A program made the translations under genes and the position numbers. DNA of 14,560 nucleotides from the IMG/VR virus record IMGVR_UViG_2681813225_000010, positions 1 to 14,560 of that record; one strand, written 5' to 3'. The notes beneath the pieces are model-generated. The model had not been told where the DNA came from, did not search any database, and worked only from the letters and a program-made list of their open reading frames with translations. Below are positions 1 to 14,560 of this stretch, one piece after another. Within the stretch, counting starts at the first letter, position 1; every line of letters starts with the position of its first letter. The stretch is from a virus. Lineage: Duplodnaviria > Heunggongvirae > Uroviricota > Caudoviricetes.

Positions 1-24
1 AGTCTCCAGGATTCCCGGGGCGGT

Positions 25-3852
<3,828 letters not shown>

Positions 3853-4042
3853 GCTTACCTTCCCTGAACGAGCTAACATAAATGCGCCCTTTCTAGCACA
3901 GCGAAAAAATGTAAATCCTGATAGCAATATGATTGAAAATTAATAACTTTTCGTTAGGCAGTTTTGGGTGTGAGTTGCAAGAGGGGAGACTACTGAATAA
4001 CTCAAGTTTTATAATCGAGGGGAAAATGGTGATGGCGTTCAT

Positions 4043-4075
4043 AGCAAAACGCCCTCAACCATAAAGGTCGAGGGC
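4043..4075 (-). terminator. Rho-independent terminator downstream of tRNA-Asn
   Basis: On the minus strand a 7-bp GC-rich stem (CGCCCTC/GAGGGCG, 4050-4056 and 4069-4075) with a 12-nt loop is followed by TTTTGCT (complement of 4043-4049). Confidence 0.5.
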
Positions 4076-4165
4076 GCTTAAGATGTTAAAAACCCGCTAT
4101 CCGTTAAAAAACAATGTTCAACTAAGGTCAGTGACATTGCGCTAAAAAAGCGAATTTTTAGAATT

Positions 4166-4241
4166 TGGCTCCTCTGACTGGACTCGAACCAGTGACATAC
4201 GGATTAACAGTCCGCCGTTCTACCGACTGAACTACAGAGGA
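4166..4241 (-). tRNA. asnT: tRNA-Asn (anticodon GUU)
   Basis: The reverse complement reads UCCUCUGUAGUUCAGUCGGUAGAACGGCGGACUGUUAAUCCGUAUGUCACUGGUUCGAGUCCAGUCAGAGGAGCCA, a 76-nt cloverleaf with GUU anticodon and CCA end. The paralog name is from context (next to mtfA and yeeJ), since E. coli tRNA-Asn copies are identical. Confidence 0.93.
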
Positions 4242-4259
4242 ATCGTGTGAACGGGGCGC

Positions 4260-4288
4260 ATATTACTTAGCGGTACCTTGTCTGTCAA
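4260..4288 (-). promoter_or_regulatory. Putative sigma70 promoter of the tRNA-Asn gene
   Basis: Minus strand shows -35 TTGACA (complement of 4283-4288), a 17-bp spacer, -10 TAATAT (complement of 4260-4265), then a GC-rich discriminator (GCGCCCCG) about 11 nt before the mature tRNA 5' end, typical of stringently controlled tRNA promoters. Confidence 0.5.
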
Positions 4289-4341
4289 CACTAAATTTCA
4301 TAAGTCATTTCAATTGGTTAATTAATCTGCAAAGTTGTTAA

Positions 4342-5139
4342 TTAATGAACATTCGTCGCCGAAAACGAGTCTGTATCATTAGTGCGATGCAGTCTCTGCA
4401 AAGGATCTTGTTGATAAAATTGGCAGAAACGTTGCCACAATGAAGGGAAACGAGGAGCAAAAAGTTCTGGGGCGCTAAAGAAATATTCAGAAAGTACGGC
4501 AAAACATTCAGCAGGATCACTGGCAGCATAAGCATCAATGCTCGCCGCATTCTCGCCAACCAATTCGATTTCTTCCTGAATGTTGTTCATTGCAGCATGA
4601 AGATCGTGTTCCCAGCCAGCAACCTCACGCAACGGAATAAAGGGAACTCCGCTGGCGCGATCGCCGTTACGGGTGTCCAGCTTATGAGCGACTTCATGAA
4701 TAATCAGGTTAAAACCAGAAGCATCAAAAGAATCTTGTATATCCAACCAGTTCAAAACGATAGGCCCTTGCTGCCAGCTCTGACCTGACTGAACAATACG
4801 TTGGTTATGCACCAGACCGATATCGTCTTCCCATTCATCATCGACCACAAATGGCGCAGGATAAATTAAGACTTCATGAAAACCATCCAGCCATTCCAGT
4901 CCTAACTCCAGAACGGGTAGGCAAAATAGAAGTGCTATCCGGCAGCTTCTTAATGAATCCAGTTCAAAGCCCTGTAAAGGAACAAGCCGCTTTTGCTGTA
5001 AAAAACGTTCGGCAAGAGTGACTAATTTGCTTTGTTCCTGTTCCGTCAGACCCGTTAAAAGGGGGATCGATAGTGCTTCCTGCCAGGGAAGGGCAGTTTG
5101 ATGTGCTGATTCTTGTACTTTCCAGGGCCACTTAATCAT
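4342..5139 (-). CDS. mtfA: MtfA (Mlc titration factor A), zinc-dependent peptidase family, 265 aa
   Basis: ORF track 4342..5178(-). Start trimmed to the ATG giving [11 protein letters not shown] (complement 5137-5139). Contains the HEVAH zinc-binding motif ([10 protein letters not shown]). Sits between tRNA-Asn and serU as in E. coli. Confidence 0.9.
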
Positions 5140-5188
5140 CGTTTTGCTCGCAAACTCGTCACTTGAACAAAATTGCACGGACAGGGAC

Positions 5189-5197
5189 TGTTAAAAT
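5189..5197 (+). promoter_or_regulatory. Putative extended -10 element (TGtTAAAAT) of a serU promoter
   Basis: TGTTAAAAT at 5189-5197 lies about 35 nt upstream of the mature tRNA-Ser 5' end. No convincing -35 found. Confidence 0.3.
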
Positions 5198-5232
5198 GCC
5201 AAATTTCCTGGCATCATGGCAACCATCTGAAC

Positions 5233-5322
5233 GGAGAGATGCCGGAGCGGCTGAACGGACCGGTCTCGAAAACCGGAGTGGGGGCAACTCCACCGGGGGT
5301 TCAAATCCCCCTCTCTCCGCCA
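5233..5322 (+). tRNA. serU: tRNA-Ser (anticodon CGA), 90 nt including long variable arm and CCA
   Basis: GGAGAGAUGCCGGAGCGGCUGAACGGACCGGUCUCGAAAACCGG... with anticodon loop CUCGAAA (anticodon CGA), long variable arm, T-arm GGGGGUUCAAAUCCCCC, and CCA at 5320-5322. Prophage-type genes begin immediately 3'. Confidence 0.93.
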
Positions 5323-5367
5323 AAATTCAATCACTTATACATCATTAAGTCAGTGACAAAAATCACA

Positions 5368-5404
5368 CTTGGAATTACTTGGAATATTTTCTTGGAATAT
5401 TTTC
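5368..5404. repeat. Three direct CTTGGAAT repeats, the last two inside an exact 13-bp tandem repeat (TTGGAATATTTTC x2); candidate integrase arm-type binding sites in attL
   Basis: CTTGGAAT at 5368-5375, 5378-5385 and 5391-5398. TTGGAATATTTTC at 5379-5391 and 5392-5404. The first copy sits on the last integrase-fragment codons and the other two lie downstream of its stop, between that fragment and the tRNA 3' end. Confidence 0.3.
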
Positions 5405-5845
5405 AGGTAACGGGACATCAAGTGTCGGTGAAACTTTAACCTTCCTGTCATAGATTAGCACTTGCCCCTCGGTTTTGTGACCAGAGAAAAGTTGCTTATC
5501 CCGACTGCTTCCTTCATAGTCTGAAATTCCTTTCGCCTTCAGATCATGAAAGGTGAAGTCGGTTAAAATACCTGAAATTTTGCCTGCGCGATTTCTTGCT
5601 TCTACCCACATTTCGTTAAAGCCTTTGTACATATATCGGTTGCCGTATTGATTACTGATTACATAGGCGGATGTTGGTAACTGTTTTGCTTTTTCGATCG
5701 CCGCCTGTAATCGTGGACTCCATGCTTTTATCTGTTTTTTTCCTGTTTTCCCTTGCTGGATAAAGATTCCGTCGTTTCCAATCTGCTCCCATTTCAGCGA
5801 TAACACATCGGAAACCCTCGCTGCACACAGATAGGCAATTTCCAT
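5375..5845 (-). pseudogene. Tyrosine recombinase (phage integrase) C-terminal catalytic-domain fragment only (156 codons); N-terminal half absent
   Basis: The translation carries the C-terminal catalytic signature of lambda-family integrases (FTFHDLKAKG..., LFSGHKTEGQVLIYDRK with the presumed catalytic Tyr). It reads toward the tRNA 3' end. No upstream minus-strand ORF of 60 aa or more continues it (5846-6078), and full-length enzymes are roughly 330-400 aa. Confidence 0.75.
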
Positions 5846-6078
5846 TGCGATAAAAACAGGAAGAGGTGCAACGCTTAATACTGGTGTACGTCAGTTGCCT
5901 GCTGAGAGATGTCCTGCGATTGAACGAGCAACAAAAGGTGGTGTCCTGTGTGAAGAACTTCGTCCTGATGTTGATTGGACATACTTACGACGCTCGTCAT
6001 GTTATTCGCAGAATATGTCGATGAAGCAACCAAATGACGAAAACGATCATACCCGAAGCATCAAGAGGCAAATGATTC

Positions 6079-6504
6079 ATGAAAATCAAGCATGAACACA
6101 TCCGCATGGCGATGAATGCCTGGGCGCGTCCTGATGGCGAAAAAGTTCCAGCAGCTGGAATAACCCAGGCTTATTTTGAGTTGGGGATGACGTTTCCTGA
6201 ACTGTATGACGACAGCCATCCGGAAGCCCTGGCTCGCAATACCCAGAAAATTTTCCGCTGGGTAGAGAAAGACACCCCTGATGCAGTTGAAAAAATTCAG
6301 GCGTTGTTACCAGCGATCGAAAAGGCAATGCCACCTTTGCTGGTGGCCAGAATGCGCAGCCACAGTTCAGCTTATTTTCGGGAGCTGGTGGAGACGCGGG
6401 AGCGACTGGTGAGAGACGCTGATGATTTTGTCGCAGTGGCAATCGCCGGTTTCAATCAGATGAACCGTGGTGGCCCGGCAGGAAATGCTGTGGCAGTACA
6501 TTGA
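6079..6504 (+). CDS. YdaT-family prophage protein (141 aa)
   Basis: ORF track. N-terminus MKIKHEHI... is as I recall for YdaT-like proteins of Rac-type prophages. It sits immediately upstream of the O-like and DnaC-like genes (ydaT-ydaU-ydaV order). AAGAGG SD-like motif 11 nt upstream. Confidence 0.65.
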   Translation: MKIKHEHIRMAMNAWARPDGEKVPAAGITQAYFELGMTFPELYDDSHPEALARNTQKIFRWVEKDTPDAVEKIQALLPAIEKAMPPLLVARMRSHSSAYFRELVETRERLVRDADDFVAVAIAGFNQMNRGGPAGNAVAVH

Positions 6505-6575
6505 CTGACAATAGCCGTATCGAATCGCTTCCGGCAACTCGTGAGTAAAAAGATTCGGTATCAGAAGAGGTGAGT

Positions 6576-7658
6576 ATGGCTAACGCCTGGCTCAGATTAT
6601 GGCATGACATGCCAAATGACCCTAAGTGGCGAACAATTGCCAGGGTGTCAGGGCAGCCAATTGCAACAGTGATGGCAGTGTATATCCACCTCCTGGTGAG
6701 CGCGTCACGAAATGTCACGCGAGGTCACATTGATGTCACGACAGAAGATTTGGCAAGTGCGCTCGACGTGACAGAAGAGGTAATTGATTCAATTTTGCAG
6801 ACGATGCAGGGGCGGGTACTTGATGGTGATTTAATCACTGGATGGGAAAAACGCCAGGTGCTTAAAGAGGACAACGGCAATATTTCGCAAACCGCAAAAT
6901 CTCCTGCAGAGCGCAAGAGGGCGCAGCGAGAGAGGGAAAGAAAGCGGGAACAAAATGGCGATTGTCACGGCGCGTCACGAAATGTCACGCACATGTCACG
7001 ACGAGTCACGACAGATAAAGATACAGATAAAGATACAGATAAAGATACAGATCAAGAAGATCAAAACACTATGGTCCATGGCGTAAAAAACGCCACGAAC
7101 CAGGCAGGGGATGTTCAGACCGTCAATCCTGGTCAGCCAGCAGGCACGACACCGGAAGCCGATTCAGCGTATGCGCTGAAAGCCGATTCGGGCGCTGTGC
7201 AGCAGGTGATGACCGCAAGGCCGGAGCAATCACACCAACTGCAGCAGCCTGAAGCCGATTCCGCCATTCAGCGGGAAGCCGATCGGGTAGTCCCGGAAAA
7301 CACCGGGCAGCCTGTGGGACGAGTGGATTATCCGGATGTGTTCGAACAGGTCTGGCGGGAATACCCGTTGCGTGCTGGGGCAAACCCGAAGAAATCCGCT
7401 TTCAGTGCCTGGAAGGCCAGATTACGCGAGGGGGTGCCACCAGAGGCCATACTGGATGGTGTGAGGCGTTACGCAAGATACCTGGCGGCTACCGGGAAAA
7501 CGGGAACGGAATTTGTTCAGCGAGCGACGACGTTTTTTGGGCCGGACCGGAATTTTGAAAACCCCTGGTTGCTCCCGGTAAGCGGCACGAACAACCAGCG
7601 TTGTGTGAATCATATTTCTGAACCGGATACCGAAATTCCGCCGGGATTCAGGGGGTGA
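6576..7658 (+). CDS. Phage replication initiation protein (lambda O-like / YdaU-like) containing the replication origin
   Basis: ORF track 6570..7658. I favour the ATG at 6576 (MANAWLRLWHD...), which has AGAAGAGG upstream. The gene contains two iteron arrays and a tandem repeat (see repeat features), like lambda ori inside O. It directly precedes a DnaC-like loader gene. Confidence 0.8.
   Translation: MANAWLRLWHDMPNDPKWRTIARVSGQPIATVMAVYIHLLVSASRNVTRGHIDVTTEDLASALDVTEEVIDSILQTMQGRVLDGDLITGWEKRQVLKEDNGNISQTAKSPAERKRAQRERERKREQNGDCHGASRNVTHMSRRVTTDKDTDKDTDKDTDQEDQNTMVHGVKNATNQAGDVQTVNPGQPAGTTPEADSAYALKADSGAVQQVMTARPEQSHQLQQPEADSAIQREADRVVPENTGQPVGRVDYPDVFEQVWREYPLRAGANPKKSAFSAWKARLREGVPPEAILDGVRRYARYLAATGKTGTEFVQRATTFFGPDRNFENPWLLPVSGTNNQRCVNHISEPDTEIPPGFRG
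6701..6745. repeat. Iteron array 1: four GTCAC(G) repeats phased at 10-11 bp
   Basis: GTCAC at 6704, 6714, 6724 and 6735. The 20-mer CGCGTCACGAAATGTCACGC (6701-6720) recurs exactly at 6971-6990. Confidence 0.6.
6961..7052. repeat. Iteron array 2 (five GTCAC repeats) followed by an A+T-rich 12-bp tandem repeat (ACAGATAAAGAT x3.5); candidate ori core
   Basis: GTCAC at 6964, 6974, 6984, 6995 and 7005 (spacing 10, 10, 11, 10). Then ACAGATAAAGAT at 7011-7022, 7023-7034 and 7035-7046, plus a partial copy to 7052. In the protein this region reads DKDTDKDTDKDTD. Confidence 0.6.
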
Positions 7659-7664
7659 TGTGGC

Positions 7665-8411
7665 ATGAAAAACATTGCGGCAGCCGGGGTTCTTGAACGT
7701 ATTCGCAGACTTGCACCACAGGCGTCGGTTCCACCGTACCGGACGGTGGAGGAGTGGCGGGAATGGCAACTTGTTGAAGGACGAAAACGCAGCGAGGAGA
7801 TTAACCGCCAGAATCACCAGTTGCGGGTGGAAAAAATCCTGAATCGTTCGGGCATCCAGCCTCTGCACAGCAAATGCTCGTTTGCGAATTATCAGGTGCA
7901 GAACGACGGGCAAAAATACGCGCTGAGCCAGGCCAAATCCATAGCTGACGAACTGATGACCGGGTGCACGAATTTTGTGTTCAGCGGTAAAACCGGCACC
8001 GGGAAAAATCACCTTGCAGCGGCGATGGGTAACCGGCTGATGGCGAAGGGGCGCAGCGTGATTATCGTCACCGTGTCTGATGTCATGAGCGTGTTGCATG
8101 ACAGCTACGACAACGGCAAATCCGGGGAAAAATTTTTACAGGAGCTTTGCAGTGTTGATTTGCTGGTCCTGGATGAAATAGGCGTTCAGCGGGAGACGAA
8201 AAACGAGCAGGTGGTATTACACCAGATAATTGATCGCCGGACAGCATCACTGTGCAGTGTCGGGATGTTAACAAACCTGAATCATGCCGCAATGAGCACG
8301 CTTCTTGGTGAGAGGATTATGGACCGCATGACCATGAACGGTGGTCGGTGGGTGACGTTTAACTGGGATAGCTGGCGTCCAAATGTCAGCAATCAGAGGG
8401 TTGTGAAGTAA
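7665..8411 (+). CDS. DnaC-like replicative helicase loader (AAA+ ATPase, IstB/DnaC family; YdaV-like)
   Basis: Walker A FSGKTGTGKNHLAAAMG and Walker B LLVLDEIG. The ATG lies 6 nt after the O-like stop, with AGGGGGTGA upstream. Confidence 0.85.
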   Translation: MKNIAAAGVLERIRRLAPQASVPPYRTVEEWREWQLVEGRKRSEEINRQNHQLRVEKILNRSGIQPLHSKCSFANYQVQNDGQKYALSQAKSIADELMTGCTNFVFSGKTGTGKNHLAAAMGNRLMAKGRSVIIVTVSDVMSVLHDSYDNGKSGEKFLQELCSVDLLVLDEIGVQRETKNEQVVLHQIIDRRTASLCSVGMLTNLNHAAMSTLLGERIMDRMTMNGGRWVTFNWDSWRPNVSNQRVVK

Positions 8412-8432
8412 TTTTTGTTGGAGGACGTTTTA

Positions 8433-9149
8433 ATGGAAACTGTATTTGACGCACTGAAAGCACTGAAAAAAGCCTCTTCACAGGTAGTGGCATCGCGCCT
8501 TGGAATCAGCCGCGAAGATGCTGTCAACGAACTGTGGAAACTGAAGCGCCGTGGTGAAGCGGATAACAAGGGTTCGATGTGGTGGCTGATTCAGGCTGGT
8601 GAAAGTGAACCAGTGTCACCGGTACCGAAAGTGACAGCGCAAATGCTGACTGAGGCGATTGAACATCATGGCCCACAAACGGCGGATGAGCTGGCACTGA
8701 TGTTCGGGATTACCTCCCGCCGGGCGAATTCATCACTGGCCATGGCAATCAGCAAAGGGCGTCTGATTCGCGTGAATCAGGGCGGTAAATTTCGGTACTG
8801 CATACCGGGCGCTGATTTACCGGCTGAGCCGAAAGCCGCATCCATAGCGGAAACGGATGGTAAAGCCTTTCCTCAGCCAGCAGGTGTTGCGTTACCAGTC
8901 GGGGAAGCGGAAACACAGGAAGAAATAAAAACGGAAAGTGTGGCGGTCACAGTGCAGTCACAGCCGTCGTTCACCAGAAAGCATCCGGATGGTCTGATTT
9001 TACCATCGCTGCATGTGGCTAACCGCGAGCTGCGCCGGGCAAAAGGTCAGGTTCAGAAGTGGGAGCGAGTCTGCGCCGCGCTGCGGGAGCTGAACAAGTG
9101 CCGGGATATTCTCCGGGATATTACCGCCACCAGAGAACAGCAGCGGTGA
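8433..9149 (+). CDS. Prophage protein with two N-terminal winged-helix-like segments and a C-terminal coiled-coil-like tail; function unknown
   Basis: ORF track 8415..9149 begins at an alternative start codon. I prefer the ATG at 8433 (METVFDALK...), with GGAGGA 8 nt upstream. It follows the DnaC-like gene, as ydaW-type genes do. Confidence 0.65.
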
Positions 9150-9181
9150 GTGGGTGGAAGACGTGGTGCCGGGCGGAAATC

Positions 9182-9463
9182 ATGATACTCCGGCAGTGTG
9201 CGGGAACGATGAAGGTAAAAAGCGTTGGCGCACTTATCGGACGAACTGAAGCGGCAGTGAGAACGAAGGCACGGGAGCTGGGCATCAGCATGATGTTACG
9301 TGGTGATTTTCACCCGTCGGCAAAATATTCTCAGCGTGATATTGAGCTGGCGCGGCAACTGCATCAGAGAGGCATGCAAAGAAGGGAAATTGCCAGAAAA
9401 TTAGGCATGCCGCTGCGCATAGTGAATAACTACGTTTATTTCGACAGGAGGGTGTCTGCGTGA
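9182..9463 (+). CDS. Small basic protein with HTH-like segments; putative DNA-binding regulator
   Basis: In-frame ATG at 9182 (MILRQCAG...), with an alternative ATG at 9209 (MKVKS...). The C-terminal QRREIARKLGMPLRIVNNYV looks like a helix-turn-helix. ORF 9059..9463 in the track is an extension overlapping the upstream gene. Confidence 0.5.
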   Translation: MILRQCAGTMKVKSVGALIGRTEAAVRTKARELGISMMLRGDFHPSAKYSQRDIELARQLHQRGMQRREIARKLGMPLRIVNNYVYFDRRVSA

Positions 9464-9687
9464 AAATCCTGTATCAGGATTACGGCCCGGTGGGGCAGGT
9501 GGTTATCAGCAGTACTGTAATGGAGTTTCGGAAGCATAACCGTGTGGTGGATGCTGTGCTGTTAACCTGTCCGGGGATATCGGCGAGTCGTGCAGGTGTG
9601 TTTATTATGAAGACGAAATTATATGGCAGTAAGGCGTGGATAAAGAAGGCGTATCGTGTAGCGTTGCAGGAGGTTAACAGTGAGTGA
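9460..9687 (+). CDS. Hypothetical small basic phage protein (75 aa)
   Basis: GTG start overlaps the upstream stop (GTGA, 9460-9463). AGGAGGG lies 9 nt upstream. No recognisable motif. Confidence 0.45.
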   Translation: MKILYQDYGPVGQVVISSTVMEFRKHNRVVDAVLLTCPGISASRAGVFIMKTKLYGSKAWIKKAYRVALQEVNSE

Positions 9688-9991
9688 AATTAAAGAAATG
9701 CCGGTAGTTCGTGACGGATATGGCTACTGGACACATCCTGAATATGAAAAATTCTGTGATGGTCGGGAATATATTTCAACGGAAGAGTTTAACGCCTGGA
9801 TGGAGGAAAATAATCTTCAATACGTCCTCTGCTTCAGAGATGAAGGATGTGCTGACCTTGATGCGTGTGATGCTGATATTTCTGCATGGGAACCGGAACG
9901 ACCAGAGGGCGATGGCTGGTTTATTGGTTCCATTCATGATACGGAAGATGGCCCGGTTTGTGTCTGGTTGCGAAATAAGGCTGAAGCATAA
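9680..9991 (+). CDS. Hypothetical strongly acidic small protein (103 aa); possible DNA-mimic-type anti-restriction/anti-defence candidate
   Basis: GTG start at 9680 with AGGAGG 6 nt upstream; overlaps the previous gene by 8 nt. By my hand count about 25 of 103 residues are Asp/Glu and about 8 are Lys/Arg. Confidence 0.5.
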   Translation: MSEIKEMPVVRDGYGYWTHPEYEKFCDGREYISTEEFNAWMEENNLQYVLCFRDEGCADLDACDADISAWEPERPEGDGWFIGSIHDTEDGPVCVWLRNKAEA

Positions 9992-10337
9992 AGGCGATAA
10001 ACCAACTAACAACTAAATACTGAAGATTTAAATCAGAAACGATTTTTATTAAATCCTTAACCGGAGGGATTCCTGCACCCTCAGAACATCAGGAGGCCGC
10101 CCGAAAGGGCGGTAAGAAATGAAACATTATTTAGAAAAAATTACCCACGAAAGAGCAGAACAACAGAGTTTCTGTTTTTCATTCTGTTTATAGTGTTGAT
10201 GATACCGATATCCCCGCTATTACTGGTCTGGATAATTGGAAGGACATTTGAACCAGTTATTGAGCTATATACCGATGTGACATGGGAATCATTCAGCGCA
10301 CTGCACAATAAAATTAATCCGTATAAGGAAAACTGAT

Positions 10338-10895
10338 ATGAGCACTATTACCAGAGAACGCGCGGAGATTAAATCATACATCACAGGCTTCCTGAGCGAC
10401 TCGGCGCACGATAACAAGTCTTCAGACAGCCTGCTGGCTAATGTGTTTCGTATCGCGCTGGCATCACTGGAAGCAGAGCCGATAGCAATGGTAGTGCCTG
10501 ATGAAATGGATTTGCTTACCTGCCATCTCGACGGTGTAACTAAAACATATGCTGATGGCTGGAACGCCTGCCGCGTCGCCATGCTTCAGGCCGGAAACTT
10601 TCGGGAAAATAAGAATTCGTCAACCAACAATTTTCGGGAAATCTCGGAAACGTCAACCAGATCTCCGATAACTCTGGATGGCTGGATAAGCTGTACTGAG
10701 CGAATGCCTGAAAAGAGCCAGAACGTGCTTATTTCGATGAATATCGATAGCGAGGCTGGGCCATTAATATATTCCGCACGCTATCTCGGAGGCACGTTCC
10801 GGCGCGGAGGTATAGCAGTTAGTCCGGGTAATGATCTTAGGCAAGCAACCCACTGGATGTCGCTACCAGAACCGCCGCAGGAGGTGAATCAATGA
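10338..10895 (+). CDS. Phage protein with an N-terminal domain of unknown function and a C-terminal DUF551-like domain
   Basis: ORF track. The C-terminus (DGWISCTERMPE...THWMSLPEPP) matches the DUF551 signature as I recall it. No search was run. Confidence 0.65.
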   Translation: MSTITRERAEIKSYITGFLSDSAHDNKSSDSLLANVFRIALASLEAEPIAMVVPDEMDLLTCHLDGVTKTYADGWNACRVAMLQAGNFRENKNSSTNNFREISETSTRSPITLDGWISCTERMPEKSQNVLISMNIDSEAGPLIYSARYLGGTFRRGGIAVSPGNDLRQATHWMSLPEPPQEVNQ

Positions 10896-10975
10896 CCTGG
10901 CCTGAAGCATTCACAACGGTAGGAATTGCGATGGCGGTGGCGCTGGTGGTGTATTCGATTTGCCGCTGGGGATAA
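10892..10975 (+). CDS. 27-codon ORF for a hydrophobic (single predicted TM) peptide, translationally coupled to the upstream gene
   Basis: The ATG at 10892 overlaps the upstream stop (ATGA). A strong SD (AGGAGGTGA, 10880-10888) lies 3-4 nt upstream. Product MTWPEAFTTVGIAMAVALVVYSICRWG. Below the 60-aa cutoff of the ORF track. Confidence 0.4.
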   Translation: MTWPEAFTTVGIAMAVALVVYSICRWG

Positions 10976-10982
10976 AAACGGT

Positions 10983-11010
10983 TTGCGGGAAAAGGATAGT
11001 TAAGTAGAAT
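10983..11010 (+). promoter_or_regulatory. Putative promoter of the hok/mok mRNA
   Basis: -35 TTGCGG (10983-10988), 16-bp spacer, -10 TAGAAT (11005-11010). The predicted start near 11015-11017 coincides with the 5' element that pairs with the transcript 3' end. Confidence 0.4.
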
Positions 11011-11062
11011 TGCAGCGGGTGCTTGAGGCTATCTGCCTCGGGCATGAACACCAACGGCAGAT

Positions 11063-11137
11063 AGAGAAAAGCCCCAGTTAACATTACGCGTCCTGCAAGA
11101 CGCTTAACATTAATCTGAGGCTCAATCCATGCTGAAC
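11063..11137 (-). ncRNA. sok: Putative Sok-like antisense RNA overlapping the mok translation initiation region; ends approximate
   Basis: Minus-strand promoter-like elements: -35 TTGCCT (complement of 11167-11172), 17-bp spacer, -10 TAACCT (complement of 11144-11149). The predicted transcript would be antisense to the mok SD and start codon. A U-run (complement of 11061-11066) could mark the 3' end, but I found no clean terminator hairpin. Confidence 0.3.
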
Positions 11138-11341
11138 ACATGTAGGTTAGCCTCTTACGTGCCGAAAGGCAAGGAGAAGCAGGCTATGAAGCAGCAAAAG
11201 GCGATGTTAATCGCCCTGATCGTCATCTGTTTAACCGTCATAGTGACGGCACTGGTAACGAGGAAAGACCTCTGCGAGGTGCGAATCCGAACCGGTCAGA
11301 CGGAGGTCGCTGTCTTCGTAGACTACGAATCTGAGAAGTAA
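11129..11341 (+). CDS. mok: Mok (modulation of killing) reading frame, an in-frame N-terminal extension of hok
   Basis: ATG at 11129 with GAGG 8 nt upstream. The N-terminus MLNTCR... resembles chromosomal mokC as I recall it; the frame continues through hok. Confidence 0.55.
   Translation: MLNTCRLASYVPKGKEKQAMKQQKAMLIALIVICLTVIVTALVTRKDLCEVRIRTGQTEVAVFVDYESEK
11186..11341 (+). CDS. hok: Hok/Gef-family type I toxin (51 aa membrane peptide)
   Basis: MKQQKAMLIALIVICLTVIVTALVTRKDLCEVRIRTGQTEVAVFVDYESEK has a TM segment followed by the conserved TRK(D/S)LCE...REVAAF-like C-terminal region of Hok/Gef toxins. AAGGAG lies 9 nt upstream of the ATG. Confidence 0.85.
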   Translation: MKQQKAMLIALIVICLTVIVTALVTRKDLCEVRIRTGQTEVAVFVDYESEK

Positions 11342-11348
11342 GAGACCA

Positions 11349-11407
11349 GGCGGGGGAGTAATCTCCCGCCACCTCTGATGTGTCAGGCATCCTCAACGCA
11401 CCCGCGC
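11349..11407 (+). promoter_or_regulatory. hok mRNA 3' structure: GC-rich terminal stem-loop plus an fbi-like element complementary to the mRNA 5' end
   Basis: Stem-loop GGCGGGGG-AGUAAU-CUCCCGCC at 11349-11370. The 3' segment CCTCAACGCACCCGC (11391-11405) is complementary to GCGGGTGCTTGAGG (11015-11028), giving 8 bp + 6 bp with one bulge. Confidence 0.55.
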
Positions 11408-11460
11408 TTTACCATACTGAAAATGCTGTTTGAATGTTCATCTCTGAAAGAGGACTATGA

Positions 11461-11805
11461 ATGAAAAAGGTATTGATTGCAGCACTTATTTCCGGTGTGT
11501 CTTTTGGCGCTTTTGCACAGCAGGGTGGTTTCCAGGGGCCAGAAGCAGAGCGTTCAACAGTAGCGCAGGCAAAAGAACTGAAGGATGATGCATGGGTTAT
11601 CCTTGAAGGGAGCATCGTTAAAAAAGTGGGTGATGAACGTTATGAGTTTCGTGACAATAGCGGGACAATTGTCACGGATATTGATGACAGCGTATGGGCC
11701 GGGCAGAATGTTTCTCCGAAAGACAAAGTAAGAATTGAGGGTGAAATTGATAAAGACCTGAGCAGTGTTGAAGTTGATGTAAAGGCACTGAAATTATTAA
11801 AGTAA
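11461..11805 (+). CDS. YgiW/YdeI-family (BOF, bacterial OB-fold, DUF388) periplasmic protein with signal peptide
   Basis: Signal peptide MKKVLIAALISGVSFGAFAQQ and clear similarity to YgiW-type proteins (QGGFQGP..., TIVTDIDD..., VEVDVK). AAAGAGGA lies 6 nt upstream. Followed by its own terminator. Confidence 0.85.
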   Translation: MKKVLIAALISGVSFGAFAQQGGFQGPEAERSTVAQAKELKDDAWVILEGSIVKKVGDERYEFRDNSGTIVTDIDDSVWAGQNVSPKDKVRIEGEIDKDLSSVEVDVKALKLLK

Positions 11806-11821
11806 CCGCCCCTGCTTGTTA

Positions 11822-11848
11822 AGCCCGTCTTACTGACGGGTTTTCTGT
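11822..11848 (+). terminator. Rho-independent terminator after the BOF gene
   Basis: Stem CCCGTC/GACGGG (11824-11829 and 11835-11840) with a 5-nt loop, followed by TTTTCTGTTT. Confidence 0.6.
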
Positions 11849-11926
11849 TTGTACATTCCGGCGTATTGCCTTACAATTCGCGCAGTCAGCCTGAACAACT
11901 GACACCTGCTGTCACCGGAGAATCCG

Positions 11927-12199
11927 ATGACACAACACATAAAATCCCACAATTCTGAAGCCGACCCGGAAATTAAGCAGGGGAGGCGTTTTCGTGCGCC
12001 TCAGTATGGCTGGTTTCACTATCTGTTCTGTACGATCGATGAGGCAGATATGCTTCAAGAGGCGTATCTGCGTCGCGGTGTCCGTGTGGAGCTGAGTCTG
12101 AACGCTGATCGTCTGACCTGGACCGTTTCTGTATATCTTCCTGTTCGTGCACATTTGCCACGGACACATGCCTGCTACCGTCAGCGCGTCTGGAGGTAA
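11927..12199 (+). CDS. Hypothetical phage protein (90 aa), first gene of a coupled pair
   Basis: ATG at 11927 with GGAG 6 nt upstream. Its stop TAA (12197-12199) sits just upstream of the GTG start of the next gene. Confidence 0.5.
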   Translation: MTQHIKSHNSEADPEIKQGRRFRAPQYGWFHYLFCTIDEADMLQEAYLRRGVRVELSLNADRLTWTVSVYLPVRAHLPRTHACYRQRVWR

Positions 12200-12200
12200 T

Positions 12201-13250
12201 GTGCGGGTATTACTTCGACCTGTTCTGGTTCCGGAACTCGGGCTGGTGGTCCTTAAGCCCGGTCGTGAATCATTGCCAGTTTTTCATCGCGGCAGGGTGC
12301 TGGTGGAGCCGGAACCGAAAAACATGCGGGCGCTGCCATCTGGAGCGGTTCCTACTGTTCGCCAGCCGCTGGCGGAAGATAAATCACTGCTGCCATTTTT
12401 CAGCGATGAGCGGGTGATTCGTGCAGCTGGCGGCGCTGGTGCACTGTCTGACTGGTTATTACGTCACGTGAAATCCTGCCAGTGGCCACACGGCGATTAT
12501 CATCACAGCGAAACCGTTATTCACAGTTACGGTGCTGGCGCAATGGTGTTGTGCTGGCACTGCGACAACCAGCTGCGCGACCAGACCTCCGAATCACTTG
12601 AGCAACTTACTCAACAAAATCTGACAGCCTGGATGATTGACGTCATACGCCATGTAATGAATGGCACGCAGGAGCGGGAATTATCGCTGGCTGAATTATC
12701 CTGGTGGGCAGTCTGCAATCAGGTGGTGGACGCATTACCTGAGGCAGTATCGCGTCGCTCTCTGGGATTACCGGCGGAAAAAATCCGCTCCGTATACCGT
12801 GAAAGCGACATCATACCGGGAGAACAGACCGCCACCAGCATACTGAAGCAGCGCACAAAAAATATTGCGCTACCGCCTCACACCCACCAGCAACAGAACC
12901 CACCACAGGAAAAGACGGTGGTCAGCATTGCCGTTGATCCGGAGTCTCCGGAATCCTTCATGAAACGACCTAAACGTCGCCGCTGGGTAAATGAGAAATA
13001 CACACGCTGGGTAAAGACACAGCCGTGTGCGTGTTGTGGTAAGCCAGCGGACGATCCTCATCATCTGATTGGTCATGGTCAGGGCGGAATGGGAACAAAA
13101 TCCCACGATATTTTCACGCTACCGCTGTGTCGGGAGCATCACAACGAGCTTCATGCGGATCCGCTGGCGTTCGAAGAAAAGCATGGTTCCCAGGTTGATT
13201 TAATTTTTCGTTTTCTTGATCACGCCTTTGCAACCGGCGTGCTCGGGTAA
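12201..13250 (+). CDS. DUF968-like phage protein with a C-terminal zinc-finger/HNH-like motif (nin-region protein)
   Basis: ORF track gives 12147..13250. I favour the GTG at 12201, 4 nt after a GGAGG motif and just past the upstream stop. C-terminus: CACCGKPADDPHHLIGHG...LCREHHNELH (Cys pairs and HH pairs as in HNH-type folds). Immediately precedes rusA. Confidence 0.65.
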   Translation: MRVLLRPVLVPELGLVVLKPGRESLPVFHRGRVLVEPEPKNMRALPSGAVPTVRQPLAEDKSLLPFFSDERVIRAAGGAGALSDWLLRHVKSCQWPHGDYHHSETVIHSYGAGAMVLCWHCDNQLRDQTSESLEQLTQQNLTAWMIDVIRHVMNGTQERELSLAELSWWAVCNQVVDALPEAVSRRSLGLPAEKIRSVYRESDIIPGEQTATSILKQRTKNIALPPHTHQQQNPPQEKTVVSIAVDPESPESFMKRPKRRRWVNEKYTRWVKTQPCACCGKPADDPHHLIGHGQGGMGTKSHDIFTLPLCREHHNELHADPLAFEEKHGSQVDLIFRFLDHAFATGVLG

Positions 13251-13262
13251 AAGAGGTTACTG

Positions 13263-13622
13263 ATGCGTATAGAGTTTGTTTTGCCTTACCCGCCGACGGT
13301 GAACACCTACTGGCGACGTCGTGGCAGCACATATTTTGTATCAAAAGCCGGTGAGCGTTATCGCCGGGATGTGGCACTTATTGTTCGCCAGCAGCGGCTG
13401 AAATTAAACCTGTCCGGAAGGCTGGCGATAAAGATTATTGCAGAGCCACCGGATAAGCGCCGTCGTGACCTGGACAATATCCTGAAAGCACCACTGGATG
13501 CGCTGACGCATGCCGGACTTCTCATAGACGACGAGCAGTTTGATGAAATCAATATTGTGCGCGGCCAGCTCGTTTCTGGTGGGCGGCTGGGCGTGAAGAT
13601 TTACAAAATTGAAAGTGAGTGA
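13263..13622 (+). CDS. rusA: RusA Holliday-junction resolvase (crossover junction endodeoxyribonuclease)
   Basis: Similarity to RusA as I recall it: PDRRRRDLDNLQKA in the reference versus PDKRRRDLDNILKA here, plus a GGRL motif near the C-terminus. AAAGAGG lies 5 nt upstream of the ATG. Confidence 0.9.
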   Translation: MRIEFVLPYPPTVNTYWRRRGSTYFVSKAGERYRRDVALIVRQQRLKLNLSGRLAIKIIAEPPDKRRRDLDNILKAPLDALTHAGLLIDDEQFDEINIVRGQLVSGGRLGVKIYKIESE

Positions 13623-13630
13623 GCATAAAT

Positions 13631-14185
13631 ATGATATACTCGGAAATTACAGGCAAAAGCGGTGAGCATTTACGCCTGAAAACGCTGGAAAGTGTCTGGA
13701 TCCAGGGGAAACTGCGTATGTGGGGGCGTTGGTCGTATATTGGCGACGGTAAGACGGGAAATATGTTCAACCAATTACTGACCTCTAAAAAGCTGACAAA
13801 AACGGCAATTAACGAGGCGCTCCGGAGGATGAAAAAAGCGGGTCTGGACAAACCTGAACTTGAGGCTTTTTTGTGGGATATGATCAACGGCAATCAAAAA
13901 AGCTGGCTGGCACATTGTACCGATTCAGAGGCGTTAATAATCGACAGGGTTATTGGTGAAGTACTGGCAGGTTATCCCGGGCTGCTCAATGTTCTGAGTC
14001 AGCGTTATGTGGGGCGGGGGATGACTAAGCGCAAAATGGCTGAACTGCTGAATGATGCACATCCGGAATGGAGTTTAAGAACCTGTGAAAGACGCATTGA
14101 GCATTGGCTAAAGGTGGCAGAATTTATTTTGTACAAACCAATGGTTATGGCTTTTGGTATAGATAAAAAAGTTATTGCTTTTTGA
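13631..14185 (+). CDS. Putative late-gene antiterminator Q-like protein (phage 82 / QuuD-type family)
   Basis: Position after rusA and immediately before a promoter-like region and a strong terminator (the PR'-tR' arrangement). Weak motif resemblance to QuuD-type proteins from memory (W-G-x-W, LLTSK, YVGRGMT). The start is ambiguous: the GTG at 13619 overlaps the rusA stop, the ATG at 13631 is in frame. Confidence 0.55.
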   Translation: MIYSEITGKSGEHLRLKTLESVWIQGKLRMWGRWSYIGDGKTGNMFNQLLTSKKLTKTAINEALRRMKKAGLDKPELEAFLWDMINGNQKSWLAHCTDSEALIIDRVIGEVLAGYPGLLNVLSQRYVGRGMTKRKMAELLNDAHPEWSLRTCERRIEHWLKVAEFILYKPMVMAFGIDKKVIAF

Positions 14186-14263
14186 CGTAAAAACTGCTTC
14201 AATTCCGGTACGCTTCGCAAAGCTGTACCGCGAGGCGAATAGCAGACATGGACATTTGAAAGA

Positions 14264-14288
14264 GCCCGCTTTTTGCGGGTTTTTTTAT
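14264..14288 (+). terminator. Strong Rho-independent terminator (tR'-like) downstream of the Q-like gene
   Basis: Stem GCCCGC/GCGGGT (14264-14269 and 14275-14280) with a TTTTT loop, followed by a 6-7 T run (14280-14286). Confidence 0.65.
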
Positions 14289-14409
14289 GACTGAAAAACG
14301 GCACGGGGCGTTAAATGCGCTGGTGGTTGCGAATACCGGTCTTTCTGCTTGCTGGCTTTTTGGACAAGAGTTATTGGTGTGTCACGTTAACCGGAAAGGG
14401 TAAAAAGAC

Positions 14410-14560
14410 ATGCTGAAACAGCAGGATATGACAGAAACCGCCAGAGTTGTGTTTGATGAATTAAGTGCCACCGAACCGGCGACAGTCGGGGAGATTGCAC
14501 AGAATACGTACCTTTCACGCGAACGCTGCCAGCTAATACTGACCCAGCTTGTTATGGCGG
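14410..14560 (+). CDS. 5' part of an ORF running off the window end; product has a winged-helix-like segment
   Basis: ATG at 14410 with a GGAAAGGG purine tract about 9 nt upstream. Translation MLKQQDMTETARVVFDELSATEPATVGEIAQNTYLSRERCQLILTQLVMA... is open to the window edge. Confidence 0.3.
   Translation, partial: MLKQQDMTETARVVFDELSATEPATVGEIAQNTYLSRERCQLILTQLVMA

Follow-up and report, generated by a model that had tools for sequence, protein, structure and literature searches.

An unannotated 27-codon frame of lambdoid prophages very probably encodes a single-helix membrane peptide

Results and Discussion

The DNA analysed here (the window) comprises positions 1 to 14,560 of the IMG/VR virus record IMGVR_UViG_2681813225_000010, 14,560 nucleotides (nt) assigned to the Caudoviricetes. 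On its plus strand, at 10892 to 10975, lies a 27-codon open reading frame (ORF) that starts on the stop codon of a gene for a DUF551 protein and that is missing from RefSeq. Our analysis makes it very probable that this frame is a genuine gene and that its product is a membrane peptide with one helix, MTWPEAFTTVGIAMAVALVVYSICRWG. Conservation of the frame, its start, its ribosome-binding site (RBS), the overlap and the length are directly supported by the comparative data, as are coding-type substitutions and independence from the flanking genes. From these features we infer translation, membrane insertion and topology, and we are confident that the ORF is a real gene whose product would be translated and inserted into the membrane. 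The whole statement proposed here, a translationally coupled single-span inner-membrane micro-protein that would act as a helix-packing modulator, appears probable. The modulator role taken by itself is speculative, and we would give it even chances.

Start region of the peptide gene

An earlier note, made from the sequence alone, had described a DUF551-like gene at 10338 to 10895 whose last codons contain a near-consensus Shine-Dalgarno (SD) sequence for an ATG overlapping its stop codon, and each of these elements was confirmed. The gene is an ORF with a match to Pfam family PF04448 (DUF551; E=5.3e-20, residues 115-181), and its final codons, CAG GAG GTG AAT CAA TGA, carry both the RBS and the overlapped start of the peptide gene. 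The SD sequence AGGAGGTGA (10879 to 10887, plus strand) lies inside this upstream coding sequence and ends 4 nt before the ATG, with its GGAGG core 7 nt before it. Its predicted duplex with the 3' end of 16S rRNA (-16.2 kcal/mol) is equalled by 0.1% of the sampled window positions, and among the gene starts of the window a single other one has SD pairing as strong. The ATG (10892 to 10894) overlaps the DUF551 TGA (10893 to 10895) in an ATGA (10892 to 10895, plus strand), the proposed site of termination and reinitiation, and opens the 27-codon frame that closes with TAA at 10973 to 10975. One open frame of this length at an ATGA junction is by itself not far from chance expectation, and the case for a gene therefore comes from the comparative data, which are strong.

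The anatomy of the region suggests that the peptide gene is carried on an early phage transcript shared with the upstream Ead/Ea22-like/DUF551 gene. Ribosomes ending at the upstream TGA would restart at the overlapping ATG, aided by the near-perfect SD sequence, and reinitiation of this kind would tie the output of peptide to whatever gene precedes it.

Conservation of the frame

A scan of viral contigs with a degenerate DNA pattern, which required both ends to be in frame, yielded 119 loci, all of them family members. Translation of 56 DNA alleles gave 33 distinct peptides (31 with a Met or Val start); all alleles have 27 codons and no internal stop, and the remaining two forward frames carry stops in 55 of the 56. 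Over codons 7-24, which are free of the search pattern, mean column entropy at codon positions 1, 2 and 3 was 0.51, 0.27 and 0.93. This excess of variation at third positions was reached in none of 20000 column permutations, and all alleles stayed open in only 14 of 3000 column shuffles. The Nei-Gojobori ratio of nonsynonymous to synonymous substitution (dN/dS) was 0.27 overall and 0.33 for the codons not fixed by the search pattern. Between clades the proportion of synonymous differences (pS) reached 0.75, with proportions of nonsynonymous differences (pN) of 0.19-0.29.

A second sample was anchored on the 19-nt upstream junction alone and was blind to the frame. It comprised 117 evaluable loci with 32 distinct downstream sequences, and the 27-codon frame was intact in 116 of them, the exception being a TGG to TGA change at codon 3. 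Other disrupted copies were rare and have TAG at codon 3 (POCJ13 and viral contig L147, identical in sequence), a 1-nt deletion in codon 2 giving 'DDWPEAF' translations (2 of 125 copies and one additional contig), or, in one of the E. coli copies listed, a likely 1-nt deletion. The phages 933W, VT1-Sakai, PhiR12, PhiR5 and POCJ13 share the peptide unit with many synonymous changes and with peptide identities of 59-67% at the lowest, and a tblastn search of phage records gave a full-length ungapped match in 92 of 94. Both comparisons proposed in the earlier note, for stops or frameshifts in close homologues and for the balance of synonymous and nonsynonymous change, thus spoke for a conserved coding sequence.

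These data also bear on the possibility that the frame is a non-functional hitch-hiking linker, young, spread by lambdoid phage recombination and open only incidentally. Such a linker would fit the narrow range of the family (phages of Escherichia, Shigella and Salmonella only), the near-identity of many copies, the existence of pseudogenised copies with TAG or TGA at codon 3 or the 1-nt deletion, and the presence of the junction GGTGAAtcaATGA on both sides of an inserted gene in 933W, as in a recombination linker. Synonymous sites are, however, near saturation between clades (pS to 0.75), yet frame, length, start and end residues persist, the periodicity and openness tests both reject a non-coding model, and disrupted copies amount to about 1%. 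We therefore consider an incidental linker very unlikely.

A reading of the 84 nt as a structured RNA was also rejected, with a fold z of -0.46 and no Rfam family overlapping the ORF.

In some copies the helix is longer or shorter by multiples of 6 nt and contains (AM)n or (AV)n runs (P0028, P0030, P0033; H148, H151). The expansions arise from an imperfect GCGRTG repeat at 10928 to 10942 of the window and give products of 31-35 amino acids (aa), or a 78-nt ORF. Since a 6-nt repeat that slips preserves the frame in any case, these length variants are not independent evidence for coding.

Upstream and downstream contexts

Junctions were compared in 125 copies (119 of them on viral contigs), which represented 38 junction variants. 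The peptide unit, from RBS to stop codon, lies behind at least six unrelated upstream gene ends, namely the DUF551 end ...HWMPLPEPPQEVNQ, a truncated DUF551 end, and ends reading ...KLPDKAMDYLKRNGLISVEDVLR, ...NIEQEVNR, ...WERGGHEEGDK and ...CVIAGIGVEVK. The upstream partner in O103:H2 12009, a hypothetical 114-aa gene after an HNH endonuclease, may match one of these types. Most partners are mosaic Ead/Ea22-like proteins with a common N-terminal '...ARIALASLEAEP' module and differing C-terminal domains, and the DUF551 protein of the window has the '...IALASLEAEP...' module in common with other partners. A Pfam search of the partners other than DUF551 gave no matches. The 4-nt overlap (ATGA; GTGA in two loci) was kept by every junction class except the frameshifted 'DD' copies, and a GGAGG-type motif 6-9 nt upstream was kept in nearly all 38 junction variants, those behind unrelated genes included.

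Pairing with DUF551 was not obligate, as the peptide gene also stands behind non-DUF551 genes. Among 115 DUF551-type gene ends with the motif HWMPLPEPP on viral contigs, mostly of metagenomic phages, 109 precede something else and six precede the peptide family (four detected intact, one intact variant and one with a stop). At the yfdS (DUF551) locus of K-12 CPS-53 the next gene is yfdT and not the peptide ORF. The earlier note had spoken of a deliberately co-translated small membrane peptide coupled to the DUF551 gene. The co-translation part of this proposal was supported at the sequence level, with frame, length, start, RBS and 4-nt overlap kept across diverged alleles, whereas DUF551 as a specific partner had to be given up: several unrelated upstream genes serve in its place, and most DUF551 genes elsewhere have no peptide gene behind them.

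Some unrelated metagenomic HWMPLPEPP genes (L132/L200, L133, L150, L162, L166) precede small hydrophobic ORFs of other sequence, with overlapping or adjacent starts; the one in L162 resembles a lipoprotein signal. A general rule that DUF551 genes precede small membrane ORFs was too weak to retain: the enrichment was marginal, at 4 of 102 compared with 22 of 1813 other ORFs of the same loci (p=0.046), which form a crude control set.

In 933W an extra gene of about 131 aa lies between the DUF551-type gene and the peptide ORF, and the ORF overlaps the stop of the inserted gene at the same GGTGAATCAATGA junction. The SD-containing junction recurs at both edges of this insert (L002 2329-2850 compared with window 10851-10978), as GAGGTGAAC TGATG... 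and ...AAGGTGAATCAATGA, which suggests a role for this short sequence as a recombination linker in the swapping of gene cassettes. The GenBank start of 933W L0139 (2295) is apparently too far upstream, and the ATG at 2370, which overlaps the preceding TGA, fits better.

Downstream of the ORF we found at least six contexts, and homology stopped at the stop codon in every comparison. A DUF4222 gene begins 4 nt past the stop in about 40 loci and is followed by xis/int; other loci continue with an IS3-family transposase, an antirepressor-like gene, an opposite-strand relE/parD pair or opposite-strand hypothetical genes. The window itself holds a complete hok/mok/sok-type locus at 10983 to 11341 (mok 11129 to 11341, hok 11186 to 11341), which is the hokW/mokW/sokW module of 933W. 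The Rfam match to the hok leader and sok (11017 to 11191, 113.5 bits) begins 41 nt past the peptide stop and leaves the ORF outside the element. A TTGCGG-16 nt-TAGAAT site (10983 to 11010), starting 8 nt past the peptide stop, is a plausible hok promoter; the promoter scan did not list it. The peptide is not a member of the Hok/Gef family (PF01848), as it has no Pfam match and the ORF mostly occurs without hok. With its varied contexts and the end of homology at the stop codon, the peptide is tied neither to DUF551 nor to the neighbouring hok/sok locus. The many partners on both sides and the few DUF551 pairings indicate that the conserved mobile unit consists of SD, ATGA, 27 codons and stop, and is gene-like.

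The same contexts help to judge two explanations in which the peptide would not act as a separate product. According to one of them the ORF is a relay or spacer whose translation alone matters, either against Rho-dependent polarity or by setting downstream expression. The overlap and the strong SD sequence are indeed the most conserved features, and the DUF4222 gene follows at 4 nt in the loci mentioned, but the contexts beyond the stop codon are not related to one another, with opposite-strand genes and promoters among them. In addition, selection acts on the amino acids (invariant W3, P4, A6, R25 and W26; near-invariant G11, A15 and G27), at a fixed length of 27 and with a dN/dS of about 0.3, which makes a mere relay quite improbable.

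The other explanation is a C-terminal membrane anchor that would be added to the upstream DUF551/Ea22-like protein by a programmed -1 frameshift before the TGA. SD-stimulated frameshift sites are known from prfB and dnaX, and the internal SD sequence a few nt before the stop recalls them; the peptide frame is also open for some codons 5' of the ATG, and some database entries are longer fusions (P0019, P0022, P0041). At AAT CAA TGA, however, there is no slippery heptamer, the position of the ATG (GTG in two loci) is kept even behind unrelated genes, VT1-type copies retain the ATGA overlap through a second added Met, and the fused entries retain the internal Met and resemble longest-ORF calls. 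An anchor made by frameshifting is thus exceedingly improbable, and we return to the peptide as a gene product in its own right.

Predicted product and proposed function

Residues W3, P4, A6, R25 and W26 are invariant across the alleles. Position 5 (Glu or Asp), G11, A15, position 21 (Tyr or Phe), I23, C24 and G27 are near-invariant, A13 and A17 are usually Ala, and the rest are swappable hydrophobics. That the product is mostly a hydrophobic helix, as the earlier note had it, agreed with our predictions: residues 6-24 have a Kyte-Doolittle mean of 2.1 in the window peptide and of 2.1-2.3 across clades, and AlphaFold2 (single sequence) folded residues 3-26 into one helix with a mean pLDDT of 87.6. 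This helix of about 24 residues has Trp at both ends and a small-residue face (G11xxxA15 / A13xxxA17), and it is predicted to qualify as a single-span bilayer helix. The sole basic residue, Arg25, together with the positive-inside rule suggests an N-out/C-in topology. The sequence has neither a charged tail nor an amphipathic face.

Database searches placed the peptide in no described family. Searches of Pfam, NCBIfam, PHROG, PADLOC and PDB sequences (phmmer) gave no significant match to the peptide, and the PADLOC defence models matched none of the peptide, the DUF551 protein, Hok and the BOF protein. The KdpF model TIGR02115 scored 14.7 bits with one allele only (cut-off 26.85), at a locus with no kdp context, which we attribute to likeness in composition. 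When 1.84 billion representative sequences were searched exhaustively with HMMER, 24 matches were obtained. All 17 whose sequence was read belong to the peptide family; among them are (AM)n/(AV)n helix expansions, stop-loss extensions and calls that begin too far upstream. A lipobox consists of [LVI][ASTVI][GAS]C followed by the mature chain. In the peptide Y-S-I precedes C24, only R-W-G follows it, and C24 is Phe in 2 of 31 alleles, so that it does not qualify as a lipoprotein. Nor does it resemble a holin, antiholin or spanin: it ends in RWG instead of a charged tail, and in the related prophage the lysis genes are found about 7 kb further downstream.

We propose that the product is a helix of residues 3-26 bounded by Trp3 and Trp26, with almost nothing outside the membrane, and that its small-residue face (G11xxxA15, A13, A17) might pack on a host or phage membrane protein or on itself. 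It would then be an accessory modulator of a membrane function, in the manner of AcrZ, KdpF or MgtS, and not an essential phage function.

A toxin or lysis-timing factor, type-I-toxin-like or holin-like, which would be translated, inserted and depolarise or permeabilise the host after induction, has to be weighed against this. In size and hydrophobicity the peptide is comparable to DinQ, ShoB, TisB and similar small toxins, repressor-controlled early operons would let lysogens tolerate its toxicity, and the ORF adjoins the hok/sok killer locus in the window and in 933W. That locus is, however, just one context of many, and genomes carry up to seven copies of the gene. The helix is uniformly apolar, rich in Ala, Val and Gly and flanked by Trp residues, and neither a charged nor an amphipathic face is present. 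There was no sign of an antisense RNA or of an occluded start: the SD sequence is exposed, no stable fold was found, and no promoter-like site lies on the minus strand over the ORF. The distance of about 7 kb to the lysis cassette of the related prophage likewise speaks against a part in lysis. A toxin is in our view unlikely, and the sequence would, speculatively, favour a helix-packing modulator over a pore-forming toxin.

A more specific form of the modulator proposal is an unnamed, widespread phage effector that would bind a particular host inner-membrane protein through G11xxxA15 and thereby tune lysogeny, induction or superinfection exclusion in Shiga toxin (Stx)/lambdoid prophages. We regard it as rather doubtful, and its candidate targets, a protease or transporter in the lysis-lysogeny decision or in DNA entry, are purely guesses.

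Several points weigh against a translated membrane modulator. Purifying selection is only moderate, with pN/pS of 0.3-0.7 between clades; for the window compared with 933W the ratio is 0.56. One antisense frame, whose third positions coincide with those of the peptide frame, gives an equal dN/dS and lacks stops in 55 of the 56 alleles. A simple sum of insertion energies comes out borderline, at about 0 to +1.6 kcal/mol. The prophage of the window is decayed and its early promoter region apparently deleted, so that expression of the window copy may be doubtful. The ORF is also missing, by sequence and coordinate (Sp5 copy NC_002695.2 1305785-1305868), from the text supplements of a Ribo-seq small-gene catalogue of Sakai, and by sequence from those of a micro-proteome survey of Enterobacteriaceae; these negatives carry little weight for a prophage gene, which is repressed and present in several copies.

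Two minus-strand candidates were rejected as genes. The antisense frame has no start covering 10915 to 10975 in the window, and its flanks vary with context. A 76-aa ORF at 10911 to 11141 crosses the hok promoter and the sok region and is context-specific.

Distribution and annotation

Of 5426 complete E. coli genomes, 1634 (~30%) carried the 84-nt gene, with 3110 copies in total, a median of one and a maximum of seven per genome. Plasmids carried 163 of the 3110 copies; those listed are of about 89-100 kb, and the carriers are taken to be P1-like phage-plasmids. Phage records with the ORF include 933W, VT2-Sakai, VT1-Sakai, BP-4795, Min27, ArgO145, many Stx1a and Stx2a phages, and a few Shigella and Salmonella phages. 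A pattern scan of genome contigs says little on taxonomic range; among the matches listed, the real ones were from E. coli, Shigella and two likely contaminant contigs, and the rest were high-GC chance matches.

As the earlier note had anticipated for standard gene callers, the frame is overlooked. RefSeq lacked it in every record inspected (an O26/O145-type prophage, Sakai Sp5, O103:H2 12009 and a P1-like plasmid), though the DUF551 gene and hok are annotated, and it was likewise not annotated in the GenBank records of 933W and Stx2 phage I. A few submitter-annotated genomes list the exact peptide as 'hypothetical protein' or 'bacteriophage protein'. A literature search by sequence found the peptide in no searchable paper, and a search with a 45-aa over-extended database entry (P0019) as query found three proteins.

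Where a contig end cuts the peptide frame in a fragmentary assembly, the frame has been deposited as 'DUF551 domain-containing protein, partial' (P0012, P0018, P0021), although it has no sequence in common with DUF551. Through these mislabelled partial entries the 27-aa peptide came to sit in a 90% cluster whose head is a Shigella DUF551 protein of 121 aa. The apparent fusion suggested by this cluster is an artefact, as the 121-aa proteins end in ...PQEVNQ and share no sequence with the peptide.

Genomic setting of the window

The window is an E. coli chromosomal segment in which yeeJ, tRNA-Asn, mtfA and tRNA-Ser precede the remains of a lambdoid (Rac-like) prophage. This decayed element holds an integrase fragment, a truncated ydaS, replication genes and then a nin-like block with DUF4014, DUF551, hok/sok, a BOF/YgiW-like gene, DUF968, rusA and DUF1133. 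The DUF551 gene (10338 to 10895, plus strand; WP_000104474.1, 'DUF551 domain-containing protein' in RefSeq) encodes a mosaic Ead/Ea22-like protein of 185 aa with a C-terminal DUF551 domain. Over 1.1 kb spanning the DUF551/peptide pair, the window is 100% identical to the intact Rac-like prophage of O26, O145 and other Shiga toxin-producing E. coli.

At 5350 to 6095 a minus-strand, frameshifted integrase fragment directly abuts a ydaS-like gene that is truncated N-terminally. With these two ends adjoining, there is no immunity region, presumably no early promoter and nothing of the early-left arm. The gene yeeJ for an inverse-autotransporter adhesin (25 to 3927, minus strand) is incomplete and lacks its C-terminus according to the annotation of the matching genome. 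The tRNA-Asn (~4166-4241, in coordinates of the matching genome locus L356, ahead of a 12-nt indel) and tRNA-Ser (~5233-5322) flank mtfA, and the prophage remnant begins directly past tRNA-Ser. The replisome-organizer gene contains 3.9 copies of a 12-nt tandem repeat, ACAGATAAAGAT, at 7011 to 7057 (97% matches), adjoined within the gene by 10-11-nt repeats at 6963 to 7013. These repeats are probably origin iterons, and one 12-nt unit probably explains why the window and its best genome match differ in length by 12 nt.

Significance and comparison with known systems

If the peptide is made, an overlooked gene would be added to heavily studied and medically relevant phages (933W, VT1/VT2-Sakai and other Stx phages), and it is in any case a well-documented example of a conserved gene that is systematically dropped by RefSeq annotation. 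The gene lies in accessory regions (exo-xis/ea, nin-like) whose genes reportedly shift the balance of lysogeny and induction, and hence Shiga toxin release. A clean phenotype test is feasible, as a start knock-out from ATG to ATA leaves the upstream stop intact as TAA.

By position, the closest comparison is with the exo-xis/ea genes (ea22, ea8.5, orf60a, orf61, orf63, orf73), a region that has been linked to the lysis-lysogeny decision (PMC10834534, PMC7093339). The copies of VT1-Sakai, PhiR12 and PhiR5 lie between Ea22-like genes and xis/int in the early-left operon, whereas the window copy sits in the early-right nin-like region. In contrast to the exo-xis/ea genes, the peptide ORF is not among the named genes, and no membrane peptide is found among the described exo-xis proteins; in a modelling review of the region the term transmembrane does not occur (PMC8614690). 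Should the effector proposal be true, a membrane-acting member would join the exo-xis/ea genes known to influence the induction of Stx prophages.

With type I toxins (Hok/Gef of the hokW type, DinQ, ShoB, TisB, Ibs) the peptide shares its short, hydrophobic nature and its place on a mobile element, and in both the window and 933W its gene is 41 nt upstream of the hok/sok RNA element. It differs from them in having no Hok homology, antisense RNA or fold-back mRNA, and in its exposed strong SD sequence and its coupling to an upstream gene.

HK97 gp15 and T4 Imm are small membrane proteins of superinfection exclusion or host modification that are larger and have soluble parts. Like these, the peptide would be an accessory phage product, predicted to lie in the inner membrane and dispensable for growth; unlike them it is smaller, and no homology to them was found.

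In its overall design the peptide is most readily compared with the small membrane modulators AcrZ, KdpF, MgtS, CydX, PmrR and SgrT, which have about 29-49 aa against the 27 aa of the phage peptide. The likeness extends to a single hydrophobic helix with almost no soluble part, to small-xxx-small motifs and to being overlooked by gene callers. In contrast to these modulators the peptide has no sequence relationship to any of them, with no match at curated thresholds, and it is carried by phages, within the accessory regions of lambdoid prophages and on P1-like plasmids, instead of standing beside a membrane complex that it would serve. The peptide is thus an uncharacterised and systematically unannotated small membrane protein of a known kind, belonging to a family for which we found no prior description.

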